A stretch of 61,434 nt of DNA from Parcubacteria group bacterium (GCA_013204345.1 JABMOB010000029.1:1-61434), one strand, 5' to 3'. Shown: positions 4,907-61,434, numbered from the stretch's first letter. The notes: generated by a model from the sequence alone, not told the origin. Numbers and translations are program-made.

Positions 4907-5968
4907 TTAAGCGCGAGATGAAGCTTCTTCTTCTAGAACCTTGTCCCGCTGGACGTCATTGAAAAATTCCATAAGCACAGCGGCGACCGGCACAGAAAGC
5001 AATAGCCCCATAAAACCAGCGAGCTGGACTCCAGCGACAAGAGCAACGATAGATATTATAGGAGAAACACCAACCACCTTTTTTACCACAAGTGGATATA
5101 TGAGTTGATTTTCAAATTGCTGAATGATTACATAAAAACCAACTATCAAAAGTGCGGTAGTTATCCCCTCATTCAAAAAAGCAAGAGCGACAGCTGGTAC
5201 GGCGGCAAGGACTGGACCAAAAAGTGGGATGAGTTCAAAAACTCCAGCAAGAACTGCGAGAAGCAAAGCATGTTTTATACCAAAAAGAGCGAGGCCTAGA
5301 TAAACCAACACTGCGATAATAACAGCAAGAAGGAGTTGCCCTTGCATCCAAAGACCTATCTTCCTCTGAGAACGTTCCCATAAACTAGCTACATACTTTC
5401 GGTGTTTAAGAGGGCTAACTGTTTTTAGAAATACACCGATACCGTCCTCTTGTACTGAAAGATAAAATGAAATAACAATGATTAGGATGAATGACAAAAA
5501 TCCTCCAAAAACAAAGCTGATTGAGCTCCACAAACCTTCTGACAAACCAGAGACAACGCTATTTATATGACTTACGATCTCTTTGAGGGAGAAACTACTA
5601 CCTAGATTTGAAAGGAACGGTTGGGCAGATGAATTAGAAGAGTCTACAGAGCCTAAATATGCTGGAAGGCTGTTTAGAAACACTGATGTGTCTGACAGAA
5701 GCGGAACAACAAGAAAATAGAAGGTTCCCGCTACAAAAAAAGCTAGCATTAGATAAATAAATAGGACTGACGGCAAACGTGGTATTTTGTGATTTATAAA
5801 CCATCTTGTAATCGGTTCGATCGCAGTAGCCACTACAATAGATCCCAATAGCGCCAAAAGGAGATCTTTTAAGAAAAAGGCTACGAAAAACAATAGGACA
5901 ATCAGAACTGATTTTACTATCACGCTAGTGCTTATATTTATGTTTGTATGATGATGGTTATTATCCAT
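4907..5968 (-). CDS. AI-2E (PerM/YhhT) family transporter
   Basis: 353 aa polytopic membrane protein. The C-terminal FENQLIYPLVVKKVVGVSPI motif is typical of the family. Confidence 0.78.
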   Translation of the reverse strand: MDNNHHHTNINISTSVIVKSVLIVLLFFVAFFLKDLLLALLGSIVVATAIEPITRWFINHKIPRLPSVLFIYLMLAFFVAGTFYFLVVPLLSDTSVFLNSLPAYLGSVDSSNSSAQPFLSNLGSSFSLKEIVSHINSVVSGLSEGLWSSISFVFGGFLSFILIIVISFYLSVQEDGIGVFLKTVSPLKHRKYVASLWERSQRKIGLWMQGQLLLAVIIAVLVYLGLALFGIKHALLLAVLAGVFELIPLFGPVLAAVPAVALAFLNEGITTALLIVGFYVIIQQFENQLIYPLVVKKVVGVSPIISIVALVAGVQLAGFMGLLLSVPVAAVLMEFFNDVQRDKVLEEEASSRA

Positions 5969-7377: not shown

Positions 7378-8763
7378 TTAATTGAGTTTTAAAGATTCTA
7401 GAAGTTTTGAAATCTCTACCCTCTCTTGCTTGCCAGTATCCCTGTCGCGTAAAGTCACCGTACCATCTTCTAATGTATCGAAATCAATTGTTACGCAATA
7501 TGGTGTACCGATTTCATCTTGTCTACGATAACGTTTACCAATATTGCCGTTGTCATCAAACACAACTGCGCCCAGTTCTTTTTTGAGAGTAACAAAAACT
7601 TCGCGGGCTTTTTCTACAAGCTGAGGTTTATTTTTCAAAAGCGGAAATACGGCAACTTTTATTGGCGCCATATTTGGTGAAAAACGCAAAACGATCCTTT
7701 TTTCTCCGTTCATCTCATCTTCAGTATAAGCGTCGGCGAGAAGCATTAATATCATACGGTCAACACCCACTGAAGTTTCAATAACATGCGGAATATATCT
7801 TTCTTTTGTCTCTTCATCAAAAAAAGACAAATCAACACCTGAAAATTTCTGATGCTGGCTTAAATCGTAGTCGCCACGATAATGAACACCCTCCAATTCG
7901 TTCCAGCCGAATGGATATTCATATTGTATATCCCACGCATCTTTTGCGTAGAAAACTAAATTTTCGTGCTGTTTCCAACGCAATTTATTTTTATCAACCC
8001 CAAGCCGGTCATAAAACGCCATCCTTTCTTTTTTCCATTCCTCGTAAGCGACAGGTGCATCTTTTGGTGAAACAAAGTACTGCATCTCCATCTGTTCAAA
8101 CTCACGCTTGCGAAACAAAAACTGACGCGGACTTATTTCATTACGAAACGCTTTGCCGACTTGAGCCACGCCGAACGGAATGGAATAAAATCCGGAATCC
8201 AAAATATTTTTATAATTTATAAATATACCCTGAGCCGTTTCTCCACGTAGATATACTTGCTCATCCCCCTCCTCAAACATACCGAGCGTAGAAGTTGCCA
8301 AGAGACTTTTTGCGGTTACTTTTCCAAAATCTTTCTTGCCACAAACTGGGCAGTGTAGTTTGGTACGATTGTCGTCAAATATTTTATTGATTTGCAATTC
8401 GGACATTTTTTCATCAGCGACAACACCTATAATTTCCAGAAGATGATCGGCTCGTAGTTTTGTGTGACAATTATTACAGATAACAAGTGGATCAGAAAAA
8501 CCACTTACATGACCACTTGCTTCCCACACTTTTCCGGCCGTAAAAATACTGGAGTCAATCATAGCAATATTTTCATGGTCCATGTTCATAGACTTAGTCC
8601 ACTCACCAACGACATTGCGATGCAAATTTACCCCAAGAGGGCCCCAGTCATATGTACCAGCAAAACCTCCATAAATCTCAGACCCTTGAAAAACAAAACC
8701 GCGCCTTTTGCAAAGCGAAACGATTTTCTCCATTTTATCTGACAGTGTTTTTTCTTTTGCCAT
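7378..8763 (-). CDS. glyQS: Glycyl-tRNA synthetase (alpha2 dimeric type)
   Basis: RGFVFQGSEIYGG..., class II motifs and a C-terminal anticodon-binding domain. 461 aa. Confidence 0.95.
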   Translation of the reverse strand: MAKEKTLSDKMEKIVSLCKRRGFVFQGSEIYGGFAGTYDWGPLGVNLHRNVVGEWTKSMNMDHENIAMIDSSIFTAGKVWEASGHVSGFSDPLVICNNCHTKLRADHLLEIIGVVADEKMSELQINKIFDDNRTKLHCPVCGKKDFGKVTAKSLLATSTLGMFEEGDEQVYLRGETAQGIFINYKNILDSGFYSIPFGVAQVGKAFRNEISPRQFLFRKREFEQMEMQYFVSPKDAPVAYEEWKKERMAFYDRLGVDKNKLRWKQHENLVFYAKDAWDIQYEYPFGWNELEGVHYRGDYDLSQHQKFSGVDLSFFDEETKERYIPHVIETSVGVDRMILMLLADAYTEDEMNGEKRIVLRFSPNMAPIKVAVFPLLKNKPQLVEKAREVFVTLKKELGAVVFDDNGNIGKRYRRQDEIGTPYCVTIDFDTLEDGTVTLRDRDTGKQERVEISKLLESLKLN

Positions 8764-8777
8764 ATAATTTATTTTTA

Positions 8778-10724
8778 CTACTTTACAACTTTTTCGTCAC
8801 CAAATTTATAACTAGGATCAGTAGTGATTCTAGTATTAAGAGTTGGTTTATCTAACTTTAGCACACTTCCTGTAAACCGATCTTGGCCCACAAGACTGAT
8901 GTTATCAAGCAATGTAGGAGTACTACCTACCTGACTTAAGCTTGGTAAAAAAGAGACCTTAAAGTTAACTTCATTTGGAGAAGAACCAAACCCTGTACCA
9001 GCTTTTATTTCTCCGGCGGACCATGTCACGGTATTATTTGCAGGGTTAAATATTACTTTCTGACCAGTAGGACTGACTGCGTCGTCTACTAATTTTACAT
9101 AGGAAGGCAGAGTTCCAACTACTTCAACATTAGATACATCATTGAAAGAGTTTGTGATAGCCCATTTTACTGTATAAGTAGTCTCCTTATCAGCAGCAGG
9201 AGGCATAGAACCAGTGTTTGTAAAAGGGCCCACTGAATGGACTATTTGAGAATTTAGACGAATGTCAGACGCAATTTTGATTTGGCGAGAAAGAGTAGCC
9301 AGAACTTCATCTGGCAGATTAACATCCGAAAACTTTTTACCGATAACTTCAATATCGATATTGATACTACCGTTTCGAAGAGACGACATAAGACTTGATG
9401 AATTTTTGAACGAACCAAAATTAAATTTTAGTGAATTTGTTCCACCTGGACTGATCCTCCCCAATCCTGTTGTATTATTTTTATCCCAAGAAATAATATT
9501 ATTCAAAGAACGGAAAAAGCCTCCACCTATGGGAAAAACTAATGATCGGTCGAGTGCATTACCTGTCAACTTTGCTTCTACACGCACATTATTTACATCA
9601 ACAGATATATTGTTTGCTAGATTAATATTTCCTTGTATTACTTCACCAATATTTGAAATGTAATCACCGTTTGTGTTGCCATTTAGATCTAAAACTAAAC
9701 CGATAAATGGTTTTTTTATAGAAACTGATTCGGCTACTGTTATGAAATCTATGCCAATAAGTTTTTCATCCTGACTGCTCGCGGTACCGATATGAAACCT
9801 AAAAGTTTTTTCTTCTTCATTTTGTCCTTGTATTTTTCCTCTAATTGTTATTACTCTTTTTTCTTTTGGTTTCAAATCACCAACTTTCCATACATTGTTA
9901 TCAAAAAGAACTAATGGTGTAGCACTTTGGAAAACAAAACCGAAAGGATAATCTACCCTTACCAAAAGATTCTCTAAAATATTATTTGAGTTTGATGTAA
10001 TTGTGGCAGAAAACACAATATCCTGGTTAGCGTTTATTTCTTTTGGATAGTCTACTACCAAAACGATGGGAGAGGAGTTTATAGAAATTTGATATAACTT
10101 ATCTTTAGAAAAAACAGCGTTTGACCCTTTGGCCATATATTCCATTGTAATTTTTATATCTTTAATACTATCCTTCTCACCAAACAAAACAGCGCTGACT
10201 GTTTTACCAACACTCTTTCCAGCTAAAATTGTTCCGAGGTTTTGTTTATCCCTCAAAAGCTCTTCACCAATATTTTTCGGTGTTCTTGTGCCGGGGGGAT
10301 ACTCTATTAGTATGTCTGCATCTGTAAGATCAACACTATTATTGTTTTGAATTACAATATCTAAAACAAGCTCTTCACCAGCAGCTACTGAAATAAGACC
10401 GTTTACCGAAATATCAATGTTGTTTGAAGAAATACTATTGAAACCGGCAAAAAATAGATAGGTAGCGACAAGCACCGCGACAAAAAAGAAAACTACAGAA
10501 CTAGTTAGTAATTTATGAAAAAAAGTATTTTGCGACTTTTCTTCACCTCCCGACTCAAGGTTGGTCTGAAACTCCTGATCTACACCAGACCAGTTTGTAT
10601 TTACATCATACTCCGTCTCTGTAATTTTTGACCGTTTCCTATCTATTACAGATGGTTTCTCACGTGAATATAAATCTTCCTGAAGCTCGTCTATTGGACT
10701 TTTTTCATCATTATTATTCTGCAT
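8778..10724 (-). CDS. Hypothetical single-pass membrane protein with a large beta-rich extracytoplasmic region
   Basis: 648 aa ORF with one TM segment (SSVVFFFVAVLVATYLFFAGF), followed by repetitive Ig-like/beta-sandwich-looking sequence. No family was recognised. Confidence 0.6.
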   Translation of the reverse strand: MQNNNDEKSPIDELQEDLYSREKPSVIDRKRSKITETEYDVNTNWSGVDQEFQTNLESGGEEKSQNTFFHKLLTSSVVFFFVAVLVATYLFFAGFNSISSNNIDISVNGLISVAAGEELVLDIVIQNNNSVDLTDADILIEYPPGTRTPKNIGEELLRDKQNLGTILAGKSVGKTVSAVLFGEKDSIKDIKITMEYMAKGSNAVFSKDKLYQISINSSPIVLVVDYPKEINANQDIVFSATITSNSNNILENLLVRVDYPFGFVFQSATPLVLFDNNVWKVGDLKPKEKRVITIRGKIQGQNEEEKTFRFHIGTASSQDEKLIGIDFITVAESVSIKKPFIGLVLDLNGNTNGDYISNIGEVIQGNINLANNISVDVNNVRVEAKLTGNALDRSLVFPIGGGFFRSLNNIISWDKNNTTGLGRISPGGTNSLKFNFGSFKNSSSLMSSLRNGSINIDIEVIGKKFSDVNLPDEVLATLSRQIKIASDIRLNSQIVHSVGPFTNTGSMPPAADKETTYTVKWAITNSFNDVSNVEVVGTLPSYVKLVDDAVSPTGQKVIFNPANNTVTWSAGEIKAGTGFGSSPNEVNFKVSFLPSLSQVGSTPTLLDNISLVGQDRFTGSVLKLDKPTLNTRITTDPSYKFGDEKVVK

Positions 10725-51686: not shown

Positions 51687-52076
51687 TTAGTTTGCTGGAC
51701 TATTTTCAAATAGAGATAACCATGCGATTATTTGTGGGCTATAAAAAGTGTCTTTGTTCGTAAGTAAATATAATTTATCAAGTCTATTTGTTTCTATTCG
51801 GCGAGTAAGACTAAAAATATAACCTACGAAAAGAAATAGTAAAAATAAAATCAATAATGAAACAGTAGAAACTGTAACGACTGAAAAGAAACTATTGTAG
51901 GACGCGATATGATGAATCACCATACCTAAAGAGAGGGGTGGACAGTTGGAAGAATCACCCAGAGATAAAAAACAATTGCCGTCGTGATTGATATAAGCGA
52001 AACCAAAAAGGCTTACAGTAAGAATAACTGTAACCAATACCAGGGTGAAAATTTTTGTTTGATTACCTAAAATCAT
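51687..52076 (-). CDS. Hypothetical membrane protein, start overlapping the ATPase stop by 4 nt
   Basis: 129 aa with two or three TM segments. Coupled to the upstream copper ATPase gene. Confidence 0.5.
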   Translation of the reverse strand: MILGNQTKIFTLVLVTVILTVSLFGFAYINHDGNCFLSLGDSSNCPPLSLGMVIHHIASYNSFFSVVTVSTVSLLILFLLFLFVGYIFSLTRRIETNRLDKLYLLTNKDTFYSPQIIAWLSLFENSPAN

Positions 52077-54403
52077 ATTTTCTTTCTCCTCATTAATACT
52101 GCGTTGAAAGAAACGATAACTGTACTTGCTGACATAAAGATCGCAGCGACTGCCGGTTGTAAGAATATACCATATACCGCTAGAACTCCAGCCGCAAGAG
52201 GGATGGCTACGATATTATAACCAGCAGCCCACCAAAGATTTTGGACCATTTTTGAGTAAGTTAGTTTTGACAGATGAATTATTTTAGCAATATCTCGTGG
52301 ATCACTCTTCACTAAAACAATGCCTGCAGATTCTATAGCTACATTGGTCCCCGCCCCGATAGCGATACCTAGATCAGCTTGAGTAAGCGCAGGAGCATCG
52401 TTTATCCCATCGCCAACCATAGCAACTTTTAGATTTTGACTTTGTAACTCAATGACTTTTTTAACCTTATCTTCAGGTAAAACTCTGGCAAAATATTGAT
52501 CTAAGCCCAACTCCTCCGCAACTTGTTTAGCAGTTTTTTCACTATCACCGGTAATCATAGCAACACGAATACCACTTTTCTTGAGCCGGTCGATGGCTTC
52601 TTTTGATTCTGGTCTCACGGCATCAGCAACAACGATTTTTCCGATAATTTGTCCATCCCTCTCAACAACAATATCATCGCCACCTTTTGTACCGACAAAT
52701 ATATGTTTACCGAGGACATTCCCTTCTGCTCCCTTTCCAGCAACACGCTTGAAACCACTTACTTCATTAATAGACAAAGATTTGTTTTTTGCTTCTTCGA
52801 CAATAGCCTTGGCAATTGGATGCTCTGAATTTGTGTTTACCGAGGCCGCAAAAGAAAGTGCTTCATCCGAACTAGATGAGATTACTTTAAATTTTGCTTC
52901 TGTTAACGTACCTGTTTTATCAAACAAAACAACATCTATATCTTTGGCGGATTCCAAAGCCAATTTTTGTCTAACAAGTAAACCGTTCTTAGCTCCCATG
53001 GTTGTAGAAATTGAAGAGACCAAAGGAATAGCCAAACCCAAAGCGTGAGGACAGGCGATGACCAAAACTGCGACCAATCGTTCAATTGAAGTAGATACTC
53101 CGGCCCCAAGAGAAAGCCAAGTAACAACAGTAATTCCTCCTGATCCTACTGCGATAAAAGTCAACCATAATGCCGCTCTATCGGAAAGGACTTGCATGCG
53201 CGATTTTGAAGCTTGTGCATCGGCAACCAGTCTCATAATACCCGAGAGAAAAGTTTTTTCGCCAACTTTAGTGATTTTAATTTTTAGACTGCCGTCACCG
53301 TTTGTTGACCCGGCAATGACTTCATCATCAACTGTTTTTTCTACAGGTTTAGATTCTCCAGTAATTATTGATTCATCTAGTTCTGATTTTCCATCGACAA
53401 TTTTACCGTCAGCAGGCACCTTACCCCCAGGACGAACTAAAACAATATCGCCCTCCTTCAACTCACTAACAGAAACGGTTTCTGTTTCTTGACTATCGCC
53501 CTTAATACGTTCGGCAACATCCGGTAAAAGTTTTGCCAACTCCTTCAAAGCTCCTTGCGCCCCTTGAACAGCGCGCATTTCTATCCAGTGCCCCAGAAGC
53601 ATTACAGCAATCAAAGACGATAGCTCCCACCATAAAGTATTAGTCCCCCCGATTATTGTTTCGTAAACACTATAAGTGTAAGCCGTGGTGATAGCCAGAG
53701 CGATAAGAGTCATCATCCCCGGCAAACGAGCTTTTATTTCTCGATAAGCACTTGAAAGAAAAATGAAACCACAATAAAAGAAAATGATACTTCCTAAAAC
53801 AAATGAAATATACGGCGTGAAAGCAAACTCTGGTGCTTTCCAACTAAAAAATATTCTAGGTAAGTCTGAATAAATAAGTATAGGAATAGTCAAAACGAGA
53901 GTAATCCAGAATTTCCTGATAAAACTATTGGTGCGATGTCCAGCGTGTTTGTTGTGTCCAGCGTGATCATGCTCATGATGAGAATCTCCAGGATCAGTGG
54001 GAACCAGACTCATCCCACACTCCGGACACATGCCTGGTTTTTCTTGTCTAATCTCTGGATGCATTGGGCAAGTGTACATTTGATGGCCTTGCTCATGATT
54101 TATATTTTCCACTTTTGACTTTCCACTTTTGACTTTTATTAGTGACATCCCACATTCGGGACACATACCCGGCTTGTCATTTTTAATTTCCGGATGCATC
54201 GGACAGGTATATACCATTTGTATATGAGAATCTGGCTGTTCCATATTTTCAATAGCATATTTTGTTATATCCAAATTGCAACTATGGTGTTCTCTGCACC
54301 AAAGTTCACATTTTTCGGCTTGTTCTTTGAGGTTGTAATGTAGACCACACTCAGAACATTTATAGTAGCCTCCGTTTGATTTTATATGATCGCAACAATT
54401 CAT
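52073..54403 (-). CDS. Copper-translocating P1B-type ATPase (CPH motif, CopB-like) with an extended metal-binding N-terminus
   Basis: DKTGTLT, a CPH transmembrane motif (IACPHALGLA), GDGINDAPAL, two YTCPMHPEI...PGMCPECGM modules and a His-rich stretch. Confidence 0.9.
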   Translation of the reverse strand: MNCCDHIKSNGGYYKCSECGLHYNLKEQAEKCELWCREHHSCNLDITKYAIENMEQPDSHIQMVYTCPMHPEIKNDKPGMCPECGMSLIKVKSGKSKVENINHEQGHQMYTCPMHPEIRQEKPGMCPECGMSLVPTDPGDSHHEHDHAGHNKHAGHRTNSFIRKFWITLVLTIPILIYSDLPRIFFSWKAPEFAFTPYISFVLGSIIFFYCGFIFLSSAYREIKARLPGMMTLIALAITTAYTYSVYETIIGGTNTLWWELSSLIAVMLLGHWIEMRAVQGAQGALKELAKLLPDVAERIKGDSQETETVSVSELKEGDIVLVRPGGKVPADGKIVDGKSELDESIITGESKPVEKTVDDEVIAGSTNGDGSLKIKITKVGEKTFLSGIMRLVADAQASKSRMQVLSDRAALWLTFIAVGSGGITVVTWLSLGAGVSTSIERLVAVLVIACPHALGLAIPLVSSISTTMGAKNGLLVRQKLALESAKDIDVVLFDKTGTLTEAKFKVISSSSDEALSFAASVNTNSEHPIAKAIVEEAKNKSLSINEVSGFKRVAGKGAEGNVLGKHIFVGTKGGDDIVVERDGQIIGKIVVADAVRPESKEAIDRLKKSGIRVAMITGDSEKTAKQVAEELGLDQYFARVLPEDKVKKVIELQSQNLKVAMVGDGINDAPALTQADLGIAIGAGTNVAIESAGIVLVKSDPRDIAKIIHLSKLTYSKMVQNLWWAAGYNIVAIPLAAGVLAVYGIFLQPAVAAIFMSASTVIVSFNAVLMRRKKI

Positions 54404-54451
54404 TTTATTATTTTTATTAGTATATTAAATTACAAAAAAAGATTTACATCA

Positions 54452-54730
54452 TTAACGAATACCGTTTTTACCAGAAACTTTATAAACCGACAAAATTTCT
54501 TTTATCGCTTTAGACCTACCTCCCCCTTTCATCTGCTTCACCACACAAGTTTGCAAATGATGTTCCAAAATTACACCCTCAAGACTCAGAAGTGCCTCCC
54601 TCACCGCTTGAGACTGGTTGATAACATCAATACAATACTTTTCATTTTCAATCATTTTCTCCAAACCATTAATTTGCCCTGCTATTATATGAAGTCTGTG
54701 TGTAGCTTTATTTTTGTTATCATTTTTCAT
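54452..54730 (-). CDS. csoR: Copper-sensing transcriptional repressor CsoR
   Basis: RLHIIAGQINGLEKMIENEKYCIDVINQSQAV..LEHHLQTCV carries the Cys/His/Cys signature. Start taken at MKNDNK. Confidence 0.85.
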   Translation of the reverse strand: MKNDNKNKATHRLHIIAGQINGLEKMIENEKYCIDVINQSQAVREALLSLEGVILEHHLQTCVVKQMKGGGRSKAIKEILSVYKVSGKNGIR

Positions 54731-54739
54731 AACTCCATG

Positions 54740-54756
54740 ATACCCCCCGGGGGTAT
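54740..54756. promoter_or_regulatory. Putative CsoR operator (ATACCCCCCGGGGGTAT)
   Basis: 17-bp GC-centred palindrome 10 nt upstream of csoR. It lies between a TTGACT (-35) and a TATCAT (-10) on the minus strand and resembles known TACCC...GGGTA CsoR boxes. Confidence 0.65.
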
Positions 54757-54867
54757 ATAAGTCAAATGGCAACTATTGCCTTGACAAACTTAGACCAAAT
54801 GGGTATTTTAGAAAAAGAAGTTCCGAAAAAACCAATAAACAGCCACAAAAGTGGCAGGAAGGGTATC

Positions 54868-55473
54868 ATGGCCAGAAAAAGAGCGTTTGTATCAGTGACA
54901 GATAAGAGAAACCTCGGGCAACTCAAACGTTTGACCGATGTTGGTTGGGAAATTGTCTCTACTGGAGGTACAGCGAAAAAACTGAACGAGCTCGGAATAC
55001 CTTGTACATCAGTTGAAGACGTTACAGGGTTTCCCGAAATTCTCGACGGACGTGTCAAATCTATGCACCCTCTCATTACCGGCGCGATGCTTGGTGACAC
55101 AACTAATCCTGTTCACATCAAACAAATGGCAGAACACGACATTGAGCCGTTTCATTTGGTGATCGTCAATCTTTACGATTTCAACGGGAAACCGGGAATC
55201 GAAAATATCGATATTGGCGGGCCCACGGCCCTTCGATCAGCAGCCAAAAATGGTGAAAATGTTCTTGTAGTAATAGATCCATCCGACTACGATATGGTGA
55301 TTGACCAAATTTTGAACTCTGGTAATGTTACTCAGACCATAAGGGAACATTTAGTTTGGAGTGTATTCGAACATACGGCAGCTTACGACACAGCAATAGC
55401 GTCCTGGATGAATAGAAAGATAGAGGAAAGAGAAAGTATTTTCGCTCAAACTCCGACAGCTCAAGGCCACTGA
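54868..55473 (+). CDS. PurH N-terminal (IMP cyclohydrolase, MGS-like) domain only
   Basis: AFVSVTDK...VSTGGTAKKL...VTGFPEILDGRVKSMHP...VNLY.F...NIDIGGPTALRSAAKN matches the PurH IMPCH domain. No AICAR transformylase half is present. AGGAAGG RBS. Confidence 0.8.
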   Translation: MARKRAFVSVTDKRNLGQLKRLTDVGWEIVSTGGTAKKLNELGIPCTSVEDVTGFPEILDGRVKSMHPLITGAMLGDTTNPVHIKQMAEHDIEPFHLVIVNLYDFNGKPGIENIDIGGPTALRSAAKNGENVLVVIDPSDYDMVIDQILNSGNVTQTIREHLVWSVFEHTAAYDTAIASWMNRKIEERESIFAQTPTAQGH

Positions 55474-55512
55474 TTAATGCGTATTGAGCCTTCGTCATAG
55501 AAAATCACAAAC

Positions 55513-55538
55513 ACCGCTCTACCCAAGGGCGGTTTTTC
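55513..55538 (+). terminator. Terminator after the PurH-N gene
   Basis: ACCGC-loop-GCGGT followed by TTTTT. Confidence 0.6.
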
Positions 55539-55541
55539 TTA

Positions 55542-55577
55542 TAAAAAACAGCCCAAGAGTATAAACCTCTCGGGCTG
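55542..55577 (-). terminator. Terminator after the minus-strand orphan ORF
   Basis: CAGCCCAAGAG-tataaac-CTCTCGGGCTG with a T-run on the minus strand. Confidence 0.7.
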
Positions 55578-55601
55578 GTGTGAACCAAATCGTGACTGAC
55601 T

Positions 55602-55925
55602 TCAGATACCACCACGAAGCTTGTGAGCTTCTTTTTGGGGCTTGTTTGAACGCCCACTTGAAGCAGCGCCAACGAGTACATTGTTACCACCCAAGGTAAG
55701 CGTCAGCTCCTCGGCAGCTTTCTCGACGGGAACTCGAACAATCTCACTCCCGTCGTGAAAATCAAGAACTGGGAACTTCGGTGTCGCATAGCCTGGATCT
55801 TCATAAACCACAGGGCTTGAGACTTCGCAGTAGTACGGAACACCGATCTGAATCCTTGAAGCGAAACTGTGCGTTGTGTATCCATCACCATGAAAACGAT
55901 AACCCTCTTCGTGAGTGAATGTCAC
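55602..55925 (-). CDS. Hypothetical protein (island). The frame stays open to about 56126 with no start codon
   Basis: GC-rich ORF with a GTG start at 55925. A further 67 upstream codons are open with no ATG, GTG or TTG. No family was recognised. Confidence 0.45.
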   Translation of the reverse strand: MTFTHEEGYRFHGDGYTTHSFASRIQIGVPYYCEVSSPVVYEDPGYATPKFPVLDFHDGSEIVRVPVEKAAEELTLTLGGNNVLVGAASSGRSNKPQKEAHKLRGGI

Positions 55926-56309
55926 CCTGCACCAACCTTTTTCCTTTGCTTGTTTGATGGCACGATCCTGAACAACCCTTGCCTGCGCAATGGTGAGGGT
56001 GATTTCATCAGTATCGATATGCCGATCGAAACCCTCATCCTTGAAAAGAATTCTCCTTTGGGCCAGAACCGATTTGCCATCGTTCGCGATAGAAACCAGA
56101 GTGATTTCTTTCGAAAAACGATGGGGTAAAAATTCTAGTAACCAAGAGGCTTTTACTCTTGTGCAGTTGGCCGGGACGACCCCAATTCATAGAGGGTTAT
56201 TTTTTGGGTTATACTGACGTGAACGCCAAGGAATTTGTCTTGGCGATCAAAGAGCTGAAATCACTGATGTATAACGACGCTATCAGTTGAAAATAATTAA
56301 ATATGAAAT

Positions 56310-57083
56310 ATGGAAAATTTGCCATTCGAAATAGATAACAATGATTACGTAAAGCTTCCACGAAGCATCAAGACCGCCCTTGTGGACGGCTATTTGAGTT
56401 TTGAGGAATACTCGGTCCTCGTCTGGCTATGGATCACTGCCAACCCACGAATGGGAAAAGCTCATGTCAGCTACGCAGGACTTTCCAAGGACTTCAAAGA
56501 AAAGTATTCCAAGAATCACATCAATCGGCTGATGCTGAACCTGAAGCGTAAGAAGTGGGTATGGTTTGCCGTACAGCAAGGTCGCAGAAGTTCGTTCCAT
56601 GTTGATATCGCCAGTTATCCCTTATCTAATGGCGGTTTTGTAGACCTTGAAACTCGTAGCAAACAGAAGTCTGGCAGAAGTGAGGATGATACTAATGAGC
56701 CTTTACCAGCAGAAGCACCGACAGAAGTCAGTGACGTTCGGCAGAAGTTGGAAAGTGACAAAAACGCTTTAGTAGATAGGTTTTCTTTCGGTTCGGAAAG
56801 CTCGCTCGGCAGAAGTTCCAAGAACGACAACGAGAAAGAAAATAAAAACAACCGATCGAATCGTGGTCGACCCGTAAGCGAATTCACTCCCAAGTCTTAC
56901 GAGGAACAGAAATGTTGGGAGATCGCCAAAGAGCTGGGAGAAAAGGATATGACTTTTATTTTATCAGCTCTCAAGAAATACGGACTGGCAAGAATTGAGG
57001 AAGCTTATCGGTCCGTCATGGATCAACCAAACGAGAAAATTCGGCACAAAGGTGCGTATTTCAATAAATTATTAACCCTTTAA
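56310..57083 (+). CDS. Winged-helix, replication-initiator/DnaD-like protein (island)
   Basis: N-terminal wHTH-like region (YVKLPRSI...LSFEEYSVLVWLW), a low-complexity linker and a C-terminal helical domain ending in GAYFNKLL. Confidence 0.45.
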   Translation: MENLPFEIDNNDYVKLPRSIKTALVDGYLSFEEYSVLVWLWITANPRMGKAHVSYAGLSKDFKEKYSKNHINRLMLNLKRKKWVWFAVQQGRRSSFHVDIASYPLSNGGFVDLETRSKQKSGRSEDDTNEPLPAEAPTEVSDVRQKLESDKNALVDRFSFGSESSLGRSSKNDNEKENKNNRSNRGRPVSEFTPKSYEEQKCWEIAKELGEKDMTFILSALKKYGLARIEEAYRSVMDQPNEKIRHKGAYFNKLLTL

Positions 57084-57104
57084 AAGATACTAAATGATAC
57101 CCAA

Positions 57105-57539
57105 ATGGCAAAAAATGTAGACATAAAAAATGAAAAGTACCAGAATGCAATCCGCTTAAAATACGGCGATTTTACTTATTCAGAGATTGCCCAACTGCTA
57201 AAGGTCTCTCACGTTACTGTAAAGAGATGGTTTCGGTCAGACGGTTTACTTAAGGATGAGTACGAACGATACGAAAAAGAAAGAAATAAAGTTCGCGATA
57301 AAGAGACTGATACCGTCCTAATGAAACACGCCGAGACCGCATCCAAAATGTTGGTTAGTCTTATGGGTGCTAAAAGCGATGCTATGAAATTCCGAGCGGC
57401 CAAAACCATTCTTGATTTTGTCCGAGGTCCGGCTGGAGGCAGAGACGATGATCTCAATGATGAAGAATACAAAAGAAGTAGCCGACAAATTAGCGAGATT
57501 TTAGAGAAATACAAGAATAAAAAGACTGTGGGCAACTAA
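57105..57539 (+). CDS. HTH DNA-binding protein (terminase-small-subunit-like, or a candidate recombination directionality factor)
   Basis: YSEIAQLLKVSHVTVKRW helix-turn-helix motif followed by a charged helical tail. Lies directly upstream of the recombinase. Confidence 0.5.
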   Translation: MAKNVDIKNEKYQNAIRLKYGDFTYSEIAQLLKVSHVTVKRWFRSDGLLKDEYERYEKERNKVRDKETDTVLMKHAETASKMLVSLMGAKSDAMKFRAAKTILDFVRGPAGGRDDDLNDEEYKRSSRQISEILEKYKNKKTVGN

Positions 57540-57624
57540 CGCTTAGCTTGTTGCCAAAAATAGCGTATGTTGTGCTTGCAAGCTAAGCCTAAAATTATCA
57601 GCCAATAATTAAAATGAAAATAAT

Positions 57625-59349
57625 ATGGAACATGCATTAATTTACTGCCGAGTCTCAACCGAGGAACAGGCCGAGGACGGCCACCACTCCCTTGCGACCC
57701 AGCTCAAGCTCTGCAAACGAGCAATCGAGGAAAGTAACAAATTCAAACTGATAGATGACGGTGTTTTTGAAGACCCCGGACGATCAGCCACCAATATGAA
57801 TCGGCCGGGTCTGCAAGACATGCTACTTAAAATCCAAGACGACAAAACAATCAGAGCTGTCTTTATTCAAGACACTGACCGATTAGCCAGAAATGCTCTT
57901 GATCACATGCAGATCAAGGCGATTATGAAAAAGCACGATGTCGAGCTTTTCTCTGTCTCCCAGCCGGGCATTACCGACAGCCCCGAGGGAAACTTTATGG
58001 ACTTGGTTATTGCCGGTGTGAACCAACTCCAATCACAAATCACTTCCAGAAAGACCTTGAAAAGTCTTGAGCTAAAATTCTGGGAGGGTTGGTGGCCGAC
58101 CGGTGTGGCTGTTGGATATTTAAATGCTGGCGAACCAGACGATGAGAAAAAGAGAATTATTATTGTAGATGAAGAACGGGCACCACTTATTCAAGAAGCA
58201 TTCAAAATGTATGTGACCGGAGATTACTCAGTCTTTGAAGTTCGCGATGCTTTATACAAAAAGGGATTCAGAACTCACGCCGATAAACGACTGGCTCACA
58301 GCAAGATGATCGAGATACTAAAAAATCCTTTTTATTACGGCGAGATGAGGTGGCGAGGATTGATTAATACCGGAAAACACAAACCGCTTATTGATAAAGA
58401 TTTGTGGGAGCGAGTCCAGCTGGTTATGGCCAAACATAACCGCTATGCTTGCCGACGGCAAAAGTTTAACTTTATTCTGCGAGGTCTGACTTTTTGTGCC
58501 AACTGCGGACAAAGATACACGGCTGAACATCATCCTAAGAAAAACAAATCTTATTATCACTGCAACCGGTCTGGCGATCAGATTAAATGCCAAGATAAGT
58601 ATGTAGAGGTTTGGGACATAGAACAGCAGGTTGCCAACTTATTCAAGTACATAGAATTCACTCCCAATTTTACCGACAGACTGGTGACCAAAATTGAAAA
58701 GATTTATAGCAGTCGCAAGGAAGTGATTAATAAAGACAAACGAGGCTTGAATACTCAAAAGATGATGTTTGAAAAGAAACGGGATACAGCCGAGGAAAAA
58801 CTATTTGCCGGACTTATCACGGATGATGATTTCACTAGAATAAAAGTGAAAATCAAAGAACAGCTCGAACTATTGCAAGACGAACTGTATGTCCAAGATA
58901 AAAAACTCAATATGAGAATCGATGAACTGCAAGATATGCTCTTATTCGTCCGCAACGCTTACGAAGCCTATACCAAATCACCGGATGAAATGAAACGATT
59001 GTTCCTTGGCCTTTACTGGGAGAGATTCGAGGTGGCTGACAAAAAAATCCAAACCGTAATACCATCACCGATCATTAGAGGACTGATGCAAGCCGAGGAC
59101 ATGGTCTTTACCAAGAAATACAAAGAGATCACCGGTCCGAGGATAATAACCGACTTGGCTGTAGAATTTACCCCATTCATAGCGGGCAAATCAAAATCTA
59201 AGATTGCCCCTAAAACGCAAAAATCCCGACAAATTGCCGAGATTCCTGCAATGATATCCAATCAACCGAACTCGGTTATATTAGATACCGTCTGGGGTGA
59301 CCACTGGGAATCGAACCCAGATTTTTGCTTCCACAAAGCAAAGTCCTAA
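57625..59349 (+). CDS. Large serine recombinase (integrase)
   Basis: ALIYCRVSTEEQ catalytic serine motif, a resolvase core, a recombinase domain, a zinc ribbon (CANCGQRY...YYHCNR) and a coiled coil. The last 57 nt overlap tRNA-His. Confidence 0.9.
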   Translation: MEHALIYCRVSTEEQAEDGHHSLATQLKLCKRAIEESNKFKLIDDGVFEDPGRSATNMNRPGLQDMLLKIQDDKTIRAVFIQDTDRLARNALDHMQIKAIMKKHDVELFSVSQPGITDSPEGNFMDLVIAGVNQLQSQITSRKTLKSLELKFWEGWWPTGVAVGYLNAGEPDDEKKRIIIVDEERAPLIQEAFKMYVTGDYSVFEVRDALYKKGFRTHADKRLAHSKMIEILKNPFYYGEMRWRGLINTGKHKPLIDKDLWERVQLVMAKHNRYACRRQKFNFILRGLTFCANCGQRYTAEHHPKKNKSYYHCNRSGDQIKCQDKYVEVWDIEQQVANLFKYIEFTPNFTDRLVTKIEKIYSSRKEVINKDKRGLNTQKMMFEKKRDTAEEKLFAGLITDDDFTRIKVKIKEQLELLQDELYVQDKKLNMRIDELQDMLLFVRNAYEAYTKSPDEMKRLFLGLYWERFEVADKKIQTVIPSPIIRGLMQAEDMVFTKKYKEITGPRIITDLAVEFTPFIAGKSKSKIAPKTQKSRQIAEIPAMISNQPNSVILDTVWGDHWESNPDFCFHKAKS

Positions 59350-59368
59350 CCGTTGAACGATGGCCACC
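59293..59368 (-). tRNA. tRNA-His (GTG anticodon) with encoded G-1 and CCA
   Basis: Cloverleaf built by hand. G-1 plus GTGGCCA/TGGTCAC acceptor stem, GTTC/GGAC D stem, TTGCT-TTGTGGA-AGCAA anticodon arm and CTGGG-TTCGATT-CCCAG T arm. Confidence 0.9.
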
Positions 59369-59369
59369 A

Positions 59370-59873
59370 TTATTTGCATTGTTCCTTGTGTTTAATTAGG
59401 AATTTATGCTTCTCTAGACTATCATAATGAACCAATGAATGGCAATTGTGGCAAAGCCATGTTAAATTTTTTAAATTATTATTTCTGTGATTTTCATCGA
59501 TATGGTGAGTGACAAGCACCCTTGTATCTTTTTCCCCACAATAACTACAAACCTGCGGAACATTATGCCGTTTTAGTATACTCTGGTAAGAATTTTTACC
59601 ATCTTTGAAAGAAGCGTGTTTAGACCCAATAAACTCGGCATTTCTCCATTTAGTTTGACAAGATTTGTTACAAAAAAAATTTCCACTCTTGGAATGACTC
59701 AGTTGGGTAAATGTTTTCATTAATTCCTTACCGCAGATAAAACAAAACACTTTTTGTCTGACACGAGTTCCTAAGTTTTTACAATTTATAGAACAATATA
59801 TACCCCAACCTCTTCTTACATGAGACGGCCTTGGATAAAATTTTGTATTACAAACCTTACAATACGATGTCAT
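59370..59873 (-). CDS. HNH endonuclease with N-terminal zinc-ribbon repeats
   Basis: HHIDENHRNNNLKNLTWLCHNCHSLVH HNH motif and repeated CxxC...YCSINC modules. Confidence 0.8.
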   Translation of the reverse strand: MTSYCKVCNTKFYPRPSHVRRGWGIYCSINCKNLGTRVRQKVFCFICGKELMKTFTQLSHSKSGNFFCNKSCQTKWRNAEFIGSKHASFKDGKNSYQSILKRHNVPQVCSYCGEKDTRVLVTHHIDENHRNNNLKNLTWLCHNCHSLVHYDSLEKHKFLIKHKEQCK

Positions 59874-60367
59874 ATCTTTTGTCTTTTTAATAATACTTTT
59901 AATTCTTTTTTGTAATTATGAACTAAAAAATGACAATTCCTACAGAGCCATGTTAGATTCTGCATATTGTTATTTTTTCTATTCTTGTCAATATGATGCA
60001 CACAAAGTATTCTTGTATCGTTTTTTCCGCACGAAACACAAATTTGTTTTGAATTTGTCCTTTTAAAAAGATTTTTATACGACGACATACCACCGGCCCA
60101 GTTAGGGTGTTTGTCTGCTCTTTGTTGTTCTCCTAGCCATAAATTACTGCAATTTATGCTGCAAAAATATTTTTTATTCTTCGATCTTTTTAAATCTTTC
60201 AGTGATTTGTAAACAACTTTCTTACAAACAAAGCATGTGACATTCTTTCCTTTTCTTCTACCTTGTTCTGAACAATTTATTGAGCAATAATGTTTTAAGC
60301 TCAGTTTCAACTGAGATTTTTTTCTCCTAAATTTCTTACCACAAATATTACAAACAACATTTTTCAT
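59870..60367 (-). CDS. HNH endonuclease with N-terminal zinc-ribbon repeats (tandem paralog)
   Basis: HHIDKNRKNNNMQNLTWLCRNCHFLVH motif. Same architecture as 59370..59873, with a 4-nt overlap. ATG 60367 is preferred over TTG 60409. Confidence 0.8.
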   Translation of the reverse strand: MKNVVCNICGKKFRRKKSQLKLSLKHYCSINCSEQGRRKGKNVTCFVCKKVVYKSLKDLKRSKNKKYFCSINCSNLWLGEQQRADKHPNWAGGMSSYKNLFKRTNSKQICVSCGKNDTRILCVHHIDKNRKNNNMQNLTWLCRNCHFLVHNYKKELKVLLKRQKI

Positions 60368-60423
60368 ATGTTTATTATATAAAACATATTTAGAAATGTA
60401 AACACTCAATTCTGTGGCTATAA

Positions 60424-60978: not shown

Positions 60979-61434
60979 AATAAAATATAGCTATCAACTA
61001 TAAATACTATCACAAATTGTGCCCGGGAGAGGACTCGAAACTTACAGTTTCAGTATCCTAATTGGCCCCTCACCCAGCTAACAATATTTTCTTCTAACAA
61101 TAAACGTTATTGATTCAATCTTTTCATGACTGGGTGAGGGGCTCAATCAGGCTTCAAGTCCTCTCCGTAAATGCCCCCGGCATTTACTCCGCGCCTAAAA
61201 ATTCCCTAACGGTAATTAATGTGTCTGTATTGTACCAAACTCGCACCTATTTCCAAAACAAAGTGAGGTAATGACTTCGCACGCTCCGCGTGCGTGGTGG
61301 CTTGAAACTGCCTCGTACGCTCCGATCGCGCTGTGACGCACCTCGACCGCACTCGCGGACTCATGCGGGCAAAAACCAAAAATTTTCCTTACCTTTCATA
61401 TTTTCCTCGGCGGGGGTGTGGGGGGAGCCGACAA

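Follow-up and report, generated by a model that had tools for sequence, protein, structure and literature searches.

A serine recombinase gene that ends inside a tRNA-His gene

We analysed a stretch of 61,434 nt from a Parcubacteria group bacterium (GCA_013204345.1 JABMOB010000029.1:1-61434; "the window" below always means this whole stretch), in which the gene for a large serine recombinase (LSR), the putative integrase of a mobile element, runs into the antisense strand of a tRNA gene. ARAGORN finds one tRNA in the whole window, a minus-strand tRNA-His(GTG) at 59293-59367; the Rfam tRNA model scores it at 56.6 bits, and the sequence itself encodes G-1 at 59368 and the terminal CCA at 59293-59295. 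The gene (59293-59368, minus strand) is intact and constitutes the B' half of the attachment site. The LSR open reading frame (ORF; 57625-59349, plus strand) encodes 574 amino acids (aa) with the domains Resolvase (PF00239, 4e-25, residues 4-151), Recombinase (PF07508, 3e-16) and Zn_ribbon_recom (PF13408, 7e-10), and matches PHROG 95 "integrase" at 3e-80; for this protein Pfam returns only serine-recombinase domains, and no tyrosine-recombinase domain. Within the catalytic motif YCRVSTEEQ, R9, S11, E14 and Q15 are invariant in an alignment of 21 sequences. The enzyme is presumably active. Its ORF overlaps the antisense of tRNA-His by 57 nt, which comprise 18 sense codons (WGDHWESNPDFCFHKAKS) and a stop codon in the D-loop region. 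A first-pass annotation of this DNA had already recognised an intact tRNA-His with a serine integrase ORF ending inside it, as the ARAGORN and Rfam results and the overlap bear out, but had counted the last 19 residues as tRNA-derived, where the overlap holds 18 residues and the stop.

The right end of the element can be placed closely by comparing the window with approximately 170 related loci, drawn from one-genome-per-species contigs and from metagenomes (cited below by their L numbers where they need to be told apart). Across 19 genome loci whose integrases are 84-99% identical to that of the window, the DNA is conserved through ...GGTTATATTAGATACCGT(C/T)TGGGGT and is then replaced by the host's own tRNA-His allele. 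A metagenome scan with the P-arm 22-mer of this conserved sequence (the P arm being the conserved arm next to TGGGGT) returned 90 loci, 70 of which adjoin tRNA-His at offset 0, with CCA falling exactly at TGG. TGGGGT is the antisense of CCA, C73, C72 and A71. Because identity stops at this motif, ahead of host-specific alleles, the right end of the element lies within it, and the last 16 residues of the window integrase are consequently encoded by host DNA: residues 1-558 are element-encoded, while DHWESNPDFCFHKAKS and the stop codon are antisense host tRNA. The right attachment-site junction (attR; 59274-59298, plus strand) consists of the P arm GGTTATATTAGATACCGTC (59274-59292) and the core TGGGGT (59293-59298). 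Comparison of the left junction (attL) with attR in L024 and L134 places strand exchange in GGGT/GGT, at tRNA positions 73-71, from which we infer a crossover within GGT, with GG or GT as its central dinucleotide. The earlier suggestion of a crossover at or inside the tRNA 3' region is thereby given a position, as identity in all 19 genome and 70 metagenome insertions ends at TGGGGT.

Composition and repeat content can be read in the same terms. The block described in the first-pass annotation as GC-richer (54800-59292) does contain 43.2% GC against 37.4% in the rest of the window, ranking second among 570 sliding windows of the same size. Its left edge is soft, with 39.7% GC already reached across CsoR-CopA (52073-54772), and its right edge does not coincide with the CCA end of the tRNA, as had been claimed; GC declines only after the tRNA 5' end (~59400). 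In related elements the core keeps 40-46% GC across host flanks of 33-55%, and this constancy, whatever the flank, explains the appearance of a GC-rich island in a host of 37% GC; the higher GC of the window copy reflects a foreign origin. Searches by blastn-short and for repeats found no tRNA direct repeat or fragment above chance anywhere in the window, in agreement with the earlier failure to find a repeat of the tRNA 3' end on the left side. This is what would be expected of a serine integrase whose common core measures only 6-9 nt.

The same arrangement recurs throughout the relatives of this enzyme. Searching 5.8 billion proteins yielded 784 LSR homologues, mostly from Patescibacteria, with C-termini that share ...VILDTVWG and then diverge into peptides resembling translated antisense tRNA (e.g. 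xRESNP and RDLNP, from the T-loop). Among the best 120 of the 784, approximately 92 have tRNA-antisense tails or stop just past "WG", and approximately 11-14 have other tails that are conserved among themselves, which we term native. At the level of genome loci, 52 of the 73 with a complete integrase 3' end terminate inside an antisense tRNA (41 His, 5 Asn, 2 Leu(TAA), 2 Glu, 1 Arg and 1 Lys); as a control, the same holds for one of 77 IMG/VR LSR loci (24-31% identical), the tRNA again being tRNA-His. The tRNA-derived tails range from 3 to approximately 40 residues and are unrelated to one another. We also considered whether the tails of close homologues derive from different tRNAs, and rejected this; they correspond to different alleles of tRNA-His. 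Integrases 93-99% identical to that of the window occur in metagenome-assembled genomes labelled Yonath-, Magasanik-, Falkow-, Komeili- and Nomurabacteria. The overlap thus characterises an entire recombinase clade and is no isolated case.

Native tails and the attachment sites of related elements

Where the integrase gene is not joined to a tRNA, its coding sequence generally goes on past "WG" (approximately 16 of 20 such metagenome loci), and the encoded homologues align with the window integrase only as far as residue 558. Two types of native tail are seen: type A, GAVVEDVRTVFERRNDATIYIP..., in L090, L107, L127, L137 and L156, as well as in P0006 and L030; and type B, GQALSGLITVLEDKEYMVTLREKMNNIKKV... 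(reading GQALSGLITVLEDKEYMVTLREKMNNIKKVAKFYNYDLLLAKK), in L097, L129, L144 and L153. The integrase of L090 is 98.9% identical to that of the window over residues 1-558. Homologues of type B are found at the C-termini of integrases that are only approximately 42% identical and do not lie beside tRNAs (such as L049, L051 and L065). Native tails are 25-45 residues long and are conserved across integrases only approximately 40% identical; the closest tail pairs differ by 10 synonymous and 3 non-synonymous codons in one case, and by 11 and 2 in another. For a tail-bearing homologue AlphaFold2 predicts a 20-residue helix in the tail, with a predicted local distance difference test score (pLDDT) of 76-81, and the model of homologue P0117 contains long helices (345-392 and 398-441) between ribbon strands.

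The piece of DNA coding for the tail is found at the far end of integrated relatives. In L024, L028, L031, L034, L046, L052 (at tRNA-Asn), L056 (at tRNA-Leu) and L134 it lies at attL, in frame behind TGG/GGT and 4-11 kb upstream of the integrase. The only sequence that attL and attR have in common is TGGGGT at tRNA-His, TGGCTCC at tRNA-Asn and TGGTGCCC at tRNA-Leu, and the P and P' arms form an imperfect inverted repeat, GTTATA...TATAAC, approximately 20 nt either side of the core. L097 equals the left part of the L134 attR followed by the right part of its attL, overlapping by 8 nt, which is the relationship of an unintegrated element site (attP) to its two products. An unoccupied host site (attB) is present in L030, reading AAAAATAACGC, then TGGGTGCC, then the tRNA, and the B arm AAAAATAACGC also occurs at an attL in L090. 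Common cores of 6-9 nt with inverted-repeat arms could in this way be reconstructed from the attL, attR, attP and attB sites of relatives. The junction anatomy and its family-wide pattern are directly visible in the aligned loci, as are the native tails and the attL tails of relatives; since native tails are present in unjoined copies and tail pieces at attL, the integrase gene contains attP, and integration exchanges the tail. The first-pass annotation had anticipated this in proposing that integration remodels the integrase C-terminus.

Two contigs carry more than one such site. In L030 (~7930-9481) an attP-form junction stands in direct orientation with the unoccupied tRNA-His attB, and in L090 (2870-4810) another stands in direct orientation with an attL-like site.

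We propose the following mechanism. The LSR would recombine attP with an attB formed by the last bases of the tRNA-His gene and its 3' flank. Within attP, the P arm would be provided by the codons for ...SVILDTV, the core by the W-G codons (TGG GGT), and P' by the first codons of the native tail, such that strand exchange in GGT (tRNA positions 73-71) would fuse the body of the integrase to antisense tRNA and give it an arbitrary tail of 3-40 residues. The element supplies C73 of the tRNA and, in window-type elements, CCA as well. The native tail-coding piece would move to the distant left junction, attL, and excision would restore the full-length integrase gene. On this scheme, ...GATACCGTCTGGGGT joined to non-tRNA DNA would mark an attP, and a tRNA-His 3' end joined to non-element DNA an attB.

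The left side of the window copy, its accessory genes and its neighbours

Compared with the canonical copies L001, L004, L005 and L019 (blastn and alignment), homology of the window copy starts at 56171, inside a DUF5659 gene that is intact in L005, where it matches PF18903. In the window only a 3' remnant of this gene is left (56171-56290, plus strand; approximately 39 codons and a stop), with 56171 as the left limit of homology. To the right of this point the remnant is followed by an intact gene for a 257-aa protein, a gene for a 144-aa helix-turn-helix (HTH) protein and the integrase, with 90-100% protein identity to other copies. Only 56171-59298 is homologous to the family. The canonical left end TATAATAAAATCAACAA, an upstream gene for a 193-aa protein and the 5' half of the DUF5659 gene are all absent from the window, and no native tail or P' remnant was found in it by tblastn with nine tails or by two profile hidden Markov models (HMMs) in six frames (all E > 1). 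The stop of homology at 56171, together with the lack of an attL or tail remnant, points to a left-truncated copy that is unlikely to excise and is probably immobilised. The first-pass view of the 4.5-kb block as one minimal element does not survive this comparison, because family homology covers 56171-59298 only and the canonical left part and attL are missing. Decay from the left is common in the family: L133, L134 and L150 keep only the last 40-120 integrase codons on tRNA-His. Such decay, with the right end retained, would follow if the tRNA depended on the P arm to keep its 3' end intact.

Two candidates for a left junction were tried and rejected. A TATAAT boundary has flanks that do not carry the expected tRNA-end bases and shows no P' symmetry; it is more likely a module boundary beside variable defence cargo. 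At ATGGGT (54798-54803), the P' motif (TTATAAC / GTAAGAAC) is missing at the right spacing, and chance alone predicts TGGGT approximately once per kb.

Of the protein-coding content named in the first-pass annotation (a PurH N-terminal domain, an orphan minus-strand ORF, and ORFs of 257 and 144 aa, the latter encoding an HTH protein), all is present. The 257-aa protein (56310-57083, plus strand), conserved in the element, had been called a winged-HTH Rep/DnaD-like protein, a label that finds no support, as neither sequence-family nor fold searches gave similarity to Rep, DnaD or primase. Its homologues, 159 in number and all labelled hypothetical, form a closed family, and it has no Pfam, PHROG or NCBIfam match even at E = 5. 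Its AlphaFold2 model has a mean pLDDT of 56 with residues 84-184 disordered, and a Foldseek search of the PDB with it returned nothing below E = 3, a negative from a low-confidence model that leaves the absence of a Rep fold unproven. The 144-aa HTH protein (57105-57539, plus strand), encoded directly upstream of the integrase, matches the generic HTH domains Sigma70_r4_2 (7e-07) and HTH_23 and, over its full length, PHROG 2538 "terminase small subunit" (1e-10); Pfam Terminase_5 reaches only E = 0.04. Its gene accompanies the integrase in canonical elements and is swapped in L007, L017 and L008; by its position, the protein is a candidate regulator or recombination directionality factor.

The cargo of related elements lies between this module and their left ends, and includes restriction-modification, ATPase and Fic/Bro-N genes. 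In L002, L005, L011 and L090 it comprises type I/III restriction-modification, SNF2 helicase, N6/N4 methylase, AAA ATPase and Fic/Bro-N/RhuM-like genes; a small zinc-ribbon gene is approximately 89% identical between L005, L009 and L018. No virion structural, packaging or lysis genes were found by Pfam or PHROG in 54800-59300. In IMG/VR, the P-arm 22-mer is absent, no close relative exists among 2.9 million viral contigs, and the best viral LSR is at most 31% identical. These results uphold the earlier judgement that the block is not a prophage, and the family looks like a group of non-viral integrative islands.

The leftmost part of the compositional island, 54800-56170, is matched by nothing in the related elements except one weak relative of the PurH domain in L055. 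This stand-alone PurH N-terminal (MGS/IMP cyclohydrolase) domain, encoded at 54868-55473 on the plus strand (44% GC), matches Pfam MGS at 1e-18 and the first 62 positions of AICARFT_IMPCHas, as well as positions 5-200 of the 510 of NCBIfam purH (below the cut-off) and PHROG 30501 (5e-42). It is approximately 45% identical to bacterial PurH N-terminal domains, with the AICAR transformylase half missing; the gene caller starts it at 54766 (235 aa), and homology begins at the ATG at 54868. Matches in phage records were set aside as ordinary bacterial purH fragments (44-47% identity). The gene lies inside the compositional island and outside the conserved element.

Between it and the element stands a unique segment (55474-56170; 47% GC), with a 187-codon open frame on the minus strand that contains no ATG, GTG or TTG in its first 80 codons. 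Neither 5.8 billion proteins nor 176 loci yielded a homologue of the segment, and it belongs to no Rfam family. Inverted repeats at 55547-55573 and 56142-56168 (22 of 27 positions matching) bracket it, the right one ending 3 nt from 56171, and RNA folding against 20 shuffles gives z = -5.2 for the minus strand and z = -2.0 for the plus strand. This segment may have been inserted as the left part of the element was lost, and could be a non-autonomous insertion or a structured RNA. In the Logan sample SRR28106091, contigs L083 and L085 end and start within approximately 12 nt of each other inside the segment (window ~55983-55994), a break that may represent population heterogeneity or a unitig artefact.

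Further out, L036, L133 and L150 resemble the window in having csoR-copA or other P-type ATPase genes on the same side of tRNA-His. A perfect palindrome, ATACCCCCCGGGGGTATA, occupies 54740-54757 between csoR and the next gene, and a near-identical TATACCCCCTAGGGGTATA precedes the csoR-copA pair in L036 (~5005-5023); both look like CsoR operators. This arrangement fits csoR-copA as a host neighbour of the site, with the left island boundary at ~54.8 kb, or, equally possibly, as recurrent cargo. Within copA, a 66-nt direct repeat (54011-54076 and 54146-54211, 77% identity) represents two tandem HMBD (heavy-metal-binding) motifs of the ATPase and is ordinary. On the other side, directly 5' of tRNA-His, two tandem paralogous zinc-finger/HNH endonuclease genes (59370-60409, minus strand; 167 and 179 aa) have homologues 42-54% identical at the same spot by tRNA-His in L005, L011, L032 and L034, and could represent either a conserved neighbour or a homing-type element in its own right. 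Past the cobalamin adenosyltransferase gene, a GC-rich stretch on the minus strand (~61020-61200) contains nested 10-bp helices (GGAGAGGACT/AGTCCTCTCC and CCCCTCACCC/GGGTGAGGGG) and gives sub-threshold Rfam matches only (Antizyme_FSE, 29.8 bits against a threshold of 40); a tRNA-Leu stands at this position in L002, and the stretch may be an unrecognised structured RNA.

Alternative explanations, known systems and significance

The reading that we favour, and consider probable on the strength of these comparisons, is of a mobile element family, common in Patescibacteria, with attP in its integrase gene, the window copy having recently been truncated on the left and no longer excising. Several observations weigh against it. 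Neither an empty site nor a circular junction was found for the population of the window itself, for which two Logan samples show the same arrangement, and the metagenome scan gave no circular contig (no terminal repeats) and no direct junction of P with the canonical left end. A diverged attL could have gone unrecognised in the window, and in the window-type loci L002, L004, L005, L007, L009, L011, L012, L015, L017 and L018, no tail or attL was found in 10 kb of left flank; the recurrent TATAATAAAATCAAC boundary in window-type elements is unlike a P' arm. The in cis arrangements of attP with attB or attL in L030 and L090, 1.4-1.9 kb apart, are not explained by simple integration and excision, and the central dinucleotide is narrowed no further than GG or GT.

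Were 54800-59298 instead a complete mobile variant, with PurH and 55474-56170 as cargo and a diverged attL in the intergenic region 54773-54867 (e.g. at ATGGGT), the rise in GC at ~54800 would mark its end, the integrase, HTH and 257-aa ORFs would be intact as they are, the CsoR/CopA or P-type ATPase genes on the same side of tRNA-His in L036, L133 and L150 would agree with csoR-copA as host neighbour of the empty site, and ATGGGT at 54798-54803 would have a parallel at the attL of L028. We nevertheless think this unlikely, given that the DUF5659 gene breaks off at 56171 where four canonical copies continue, that neither tblastn nor profile HMMs detect a tail-like coding piece, and that ATGGGT lacks its P' motif and contains a pentamer common by chance. 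Less likely still is a minimal integrative plasmid or phage satellite, replicated by the 257-aa protein as a Rep and packaged through the HTH protein as a terminase small subunit: the module is small and free of structural genes, and the HTH protein matches PHROG 2538 over its full length, but this match rests on a generic HTH with poor Terminase_5 support, the 257-aa protein shows no detectable resemblance to Rep, DnaD or primase families in sequence or fold, no replication module was identified, no relative was found among the viral contigs, and related elements bear defence cargo. Scarcely credible is a classic tRNA island with a long common core, in which the element would carry its own 3' half of tRNA-His and leave a displaced fragment at its left end. 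The tRNA is indeed intact after integration, and the integrase lies beside its 3' end as in tyrosine-type islands, yet integrases 93-99% identical stand beside clearly different tRNA-His genes with identity ending after TGGGGT, searches of the rest of the window gave no tRNA fragment, and the enzyme is a serine, not a tyrosine, recombinase.

A separate question is what the exchange of tails does to the enzyme. It is possible, if doubtful, that the integrase/tRNA overlap is incidental, the protein ending for all practical purposes at "WG" and native and tRNA-derived tails alike serving as dispensable spacer. The tRNA-derived tails, with their unrelated sequences and wide range of lengths, would suit this, and since the elements have spread, an integrase deprived of its native tail would have at least to permit excision. 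Set against it are the conservation of native tails across distantly related integrases, their excess of synonymous differences, their extent well past the ~25 bp expected of a P' arm, and the helix predicted for them by AlphaFold2. The tail exchange might, on the other hand, act as a built-in switch, in which the conserved C-terminal helix of the free form, kept by purifying selection, tunes integrase activity, partner binding or stability, an idea that we advance only tentatively.

Among known systems, the SSV1 type of Sulfolobus fuselloviruses has attP inside a tyrosine integrase ORF, and integration at a tRNA gene splits that gene into pieces which flank the element. The present family works similarly, in that the body of the integrase stands at attR and a tail piece at attL (L024, L028, L034, L052, L056 and L134). 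However, the SSV1-type enzymes come from archaeal viruses and are tyrosine recombinases that forfeit much of their length in the split, whereas the serine recombinase described here loses only its last 25-45 residues and keeps its catalytic and DNA-binding domains. SCCmec elements, in which Ccr recombinases insert at the 3' end of the housekeeping gene rlmH/orfX and preserve it, are likewise LSR-driven integrative elements devoid of phage genes (CcrA/CcrB/CcrC), but here the target is an RNA gene and there is a single recombinase gene, which is not an SCCmec Ccr (NCBIfam scores of 117.9 bits for CcrB and 93.9 bits for CcrC; cut-off 900). Tyrosine-integrase tRNA islands share the tRNA 3' end as target, the integrase beside the tRNA and the character of a hot spot with defence cargo and decayed remnants; they differ in having a long direct repeat and another enzyme family and mechanism, whereas only 4-6 nt of the tRNA are replaced here.

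The LSRs of phages and integrative and conjugative elements (phiC31, Bxb1, A118/LI, TP901-1, SPbeta SprA) have the same Resolvase, Recombinase and zinc ribbon domains with a long coiled coil and likewise have the integrase gene beside attP; they seem alike too in short attachment sites, tiny core and imperfectly symmetric arms, as reconstructed here from relatives. The window LSR is at most 29% identical to characterised phage integrases, and differs in that its target is the 3' end of a tRNA gene and its attP falls within the coding sequence of the integrase. The targets of serine integrases are taken to be protein-coding or intergenic, as opposed to tRNA genes (PMC9262239); tRNA is nowhere mentioned in the Durrant survey of LSR targets (bioRxiv 10.1101/2021.11.05.467528), and a 2026 LSR review has the term only in its reference list, in an unrelated citation. 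In integration-dependent immunity, a repressor gene contains attP and a tRNA gene overlaps attB, so that integration strips the protein of a C-terminal tag and thereby alters its properties (PMC9262239); the mycobacteriophages BPs, Brujita and Charlie that use it have a tyrosine integrase with a C-terminal tag, a 35-bp core and no evident dedicated recombination directionality factor (PMC9262239). Placement of attP in the 3' end of a coding gene, the tRNA-overlapping attB and the replacement of a C-terminus are common to both, but those phages remodel the repressor, while here the serine integrase itself is remodelled, at a core of 6-9 bp. Window-type tails end in ...LLLAKK, ...EYTAL or ...VEFV and only some distant native tails in -AA, which by analogy is only a hint of a degradation-tag role for the native tail. 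The family thus operates in the manner of SSV1 and of integration-dependent immunity and belongs to neither; an earlier description may exist, our literature search being incomplete.

For the biology of these bacteria, the analysis describes a clade of hundreds of LSRs that target tRNA 3' ends, mainly of tRNA-His and also of tRNA-Asn, -Leu, -Arg, -Lys and -Glu. As attP lies inside the integrase gene, the C-terminus of the enzyme depends on its state of integration. To our knowledge, few mobile elements and almost no genetic tools are available for bacteria of the candidate phyla radiation (CPR), and integrases 93-99% identical across lineages are direct evidence for recent gene flow between CPR lineages. 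Because C73 and CCA of the tRNA come from the element, its right end cannot be lost, and for annotation the pattern explains why integrase fragments persist on tRNA-His genes, the window copy being a decayed example rather than an active minimal element. If the tail exchange does act as a switch, the integrated enzyme would differ from the free one, for instance in being stabilised, or in being competent for excision but not for re-integration, and the system would be a serine-recombinase counterpart of integration-dependent immunity, with directionality partly self-encoded by the position of attP. If the proposed mechanism is right, these would be natural LSRs with a near-universal tRNA 3' end as their attB, and possibly a genetic tool for CPR bacteria.

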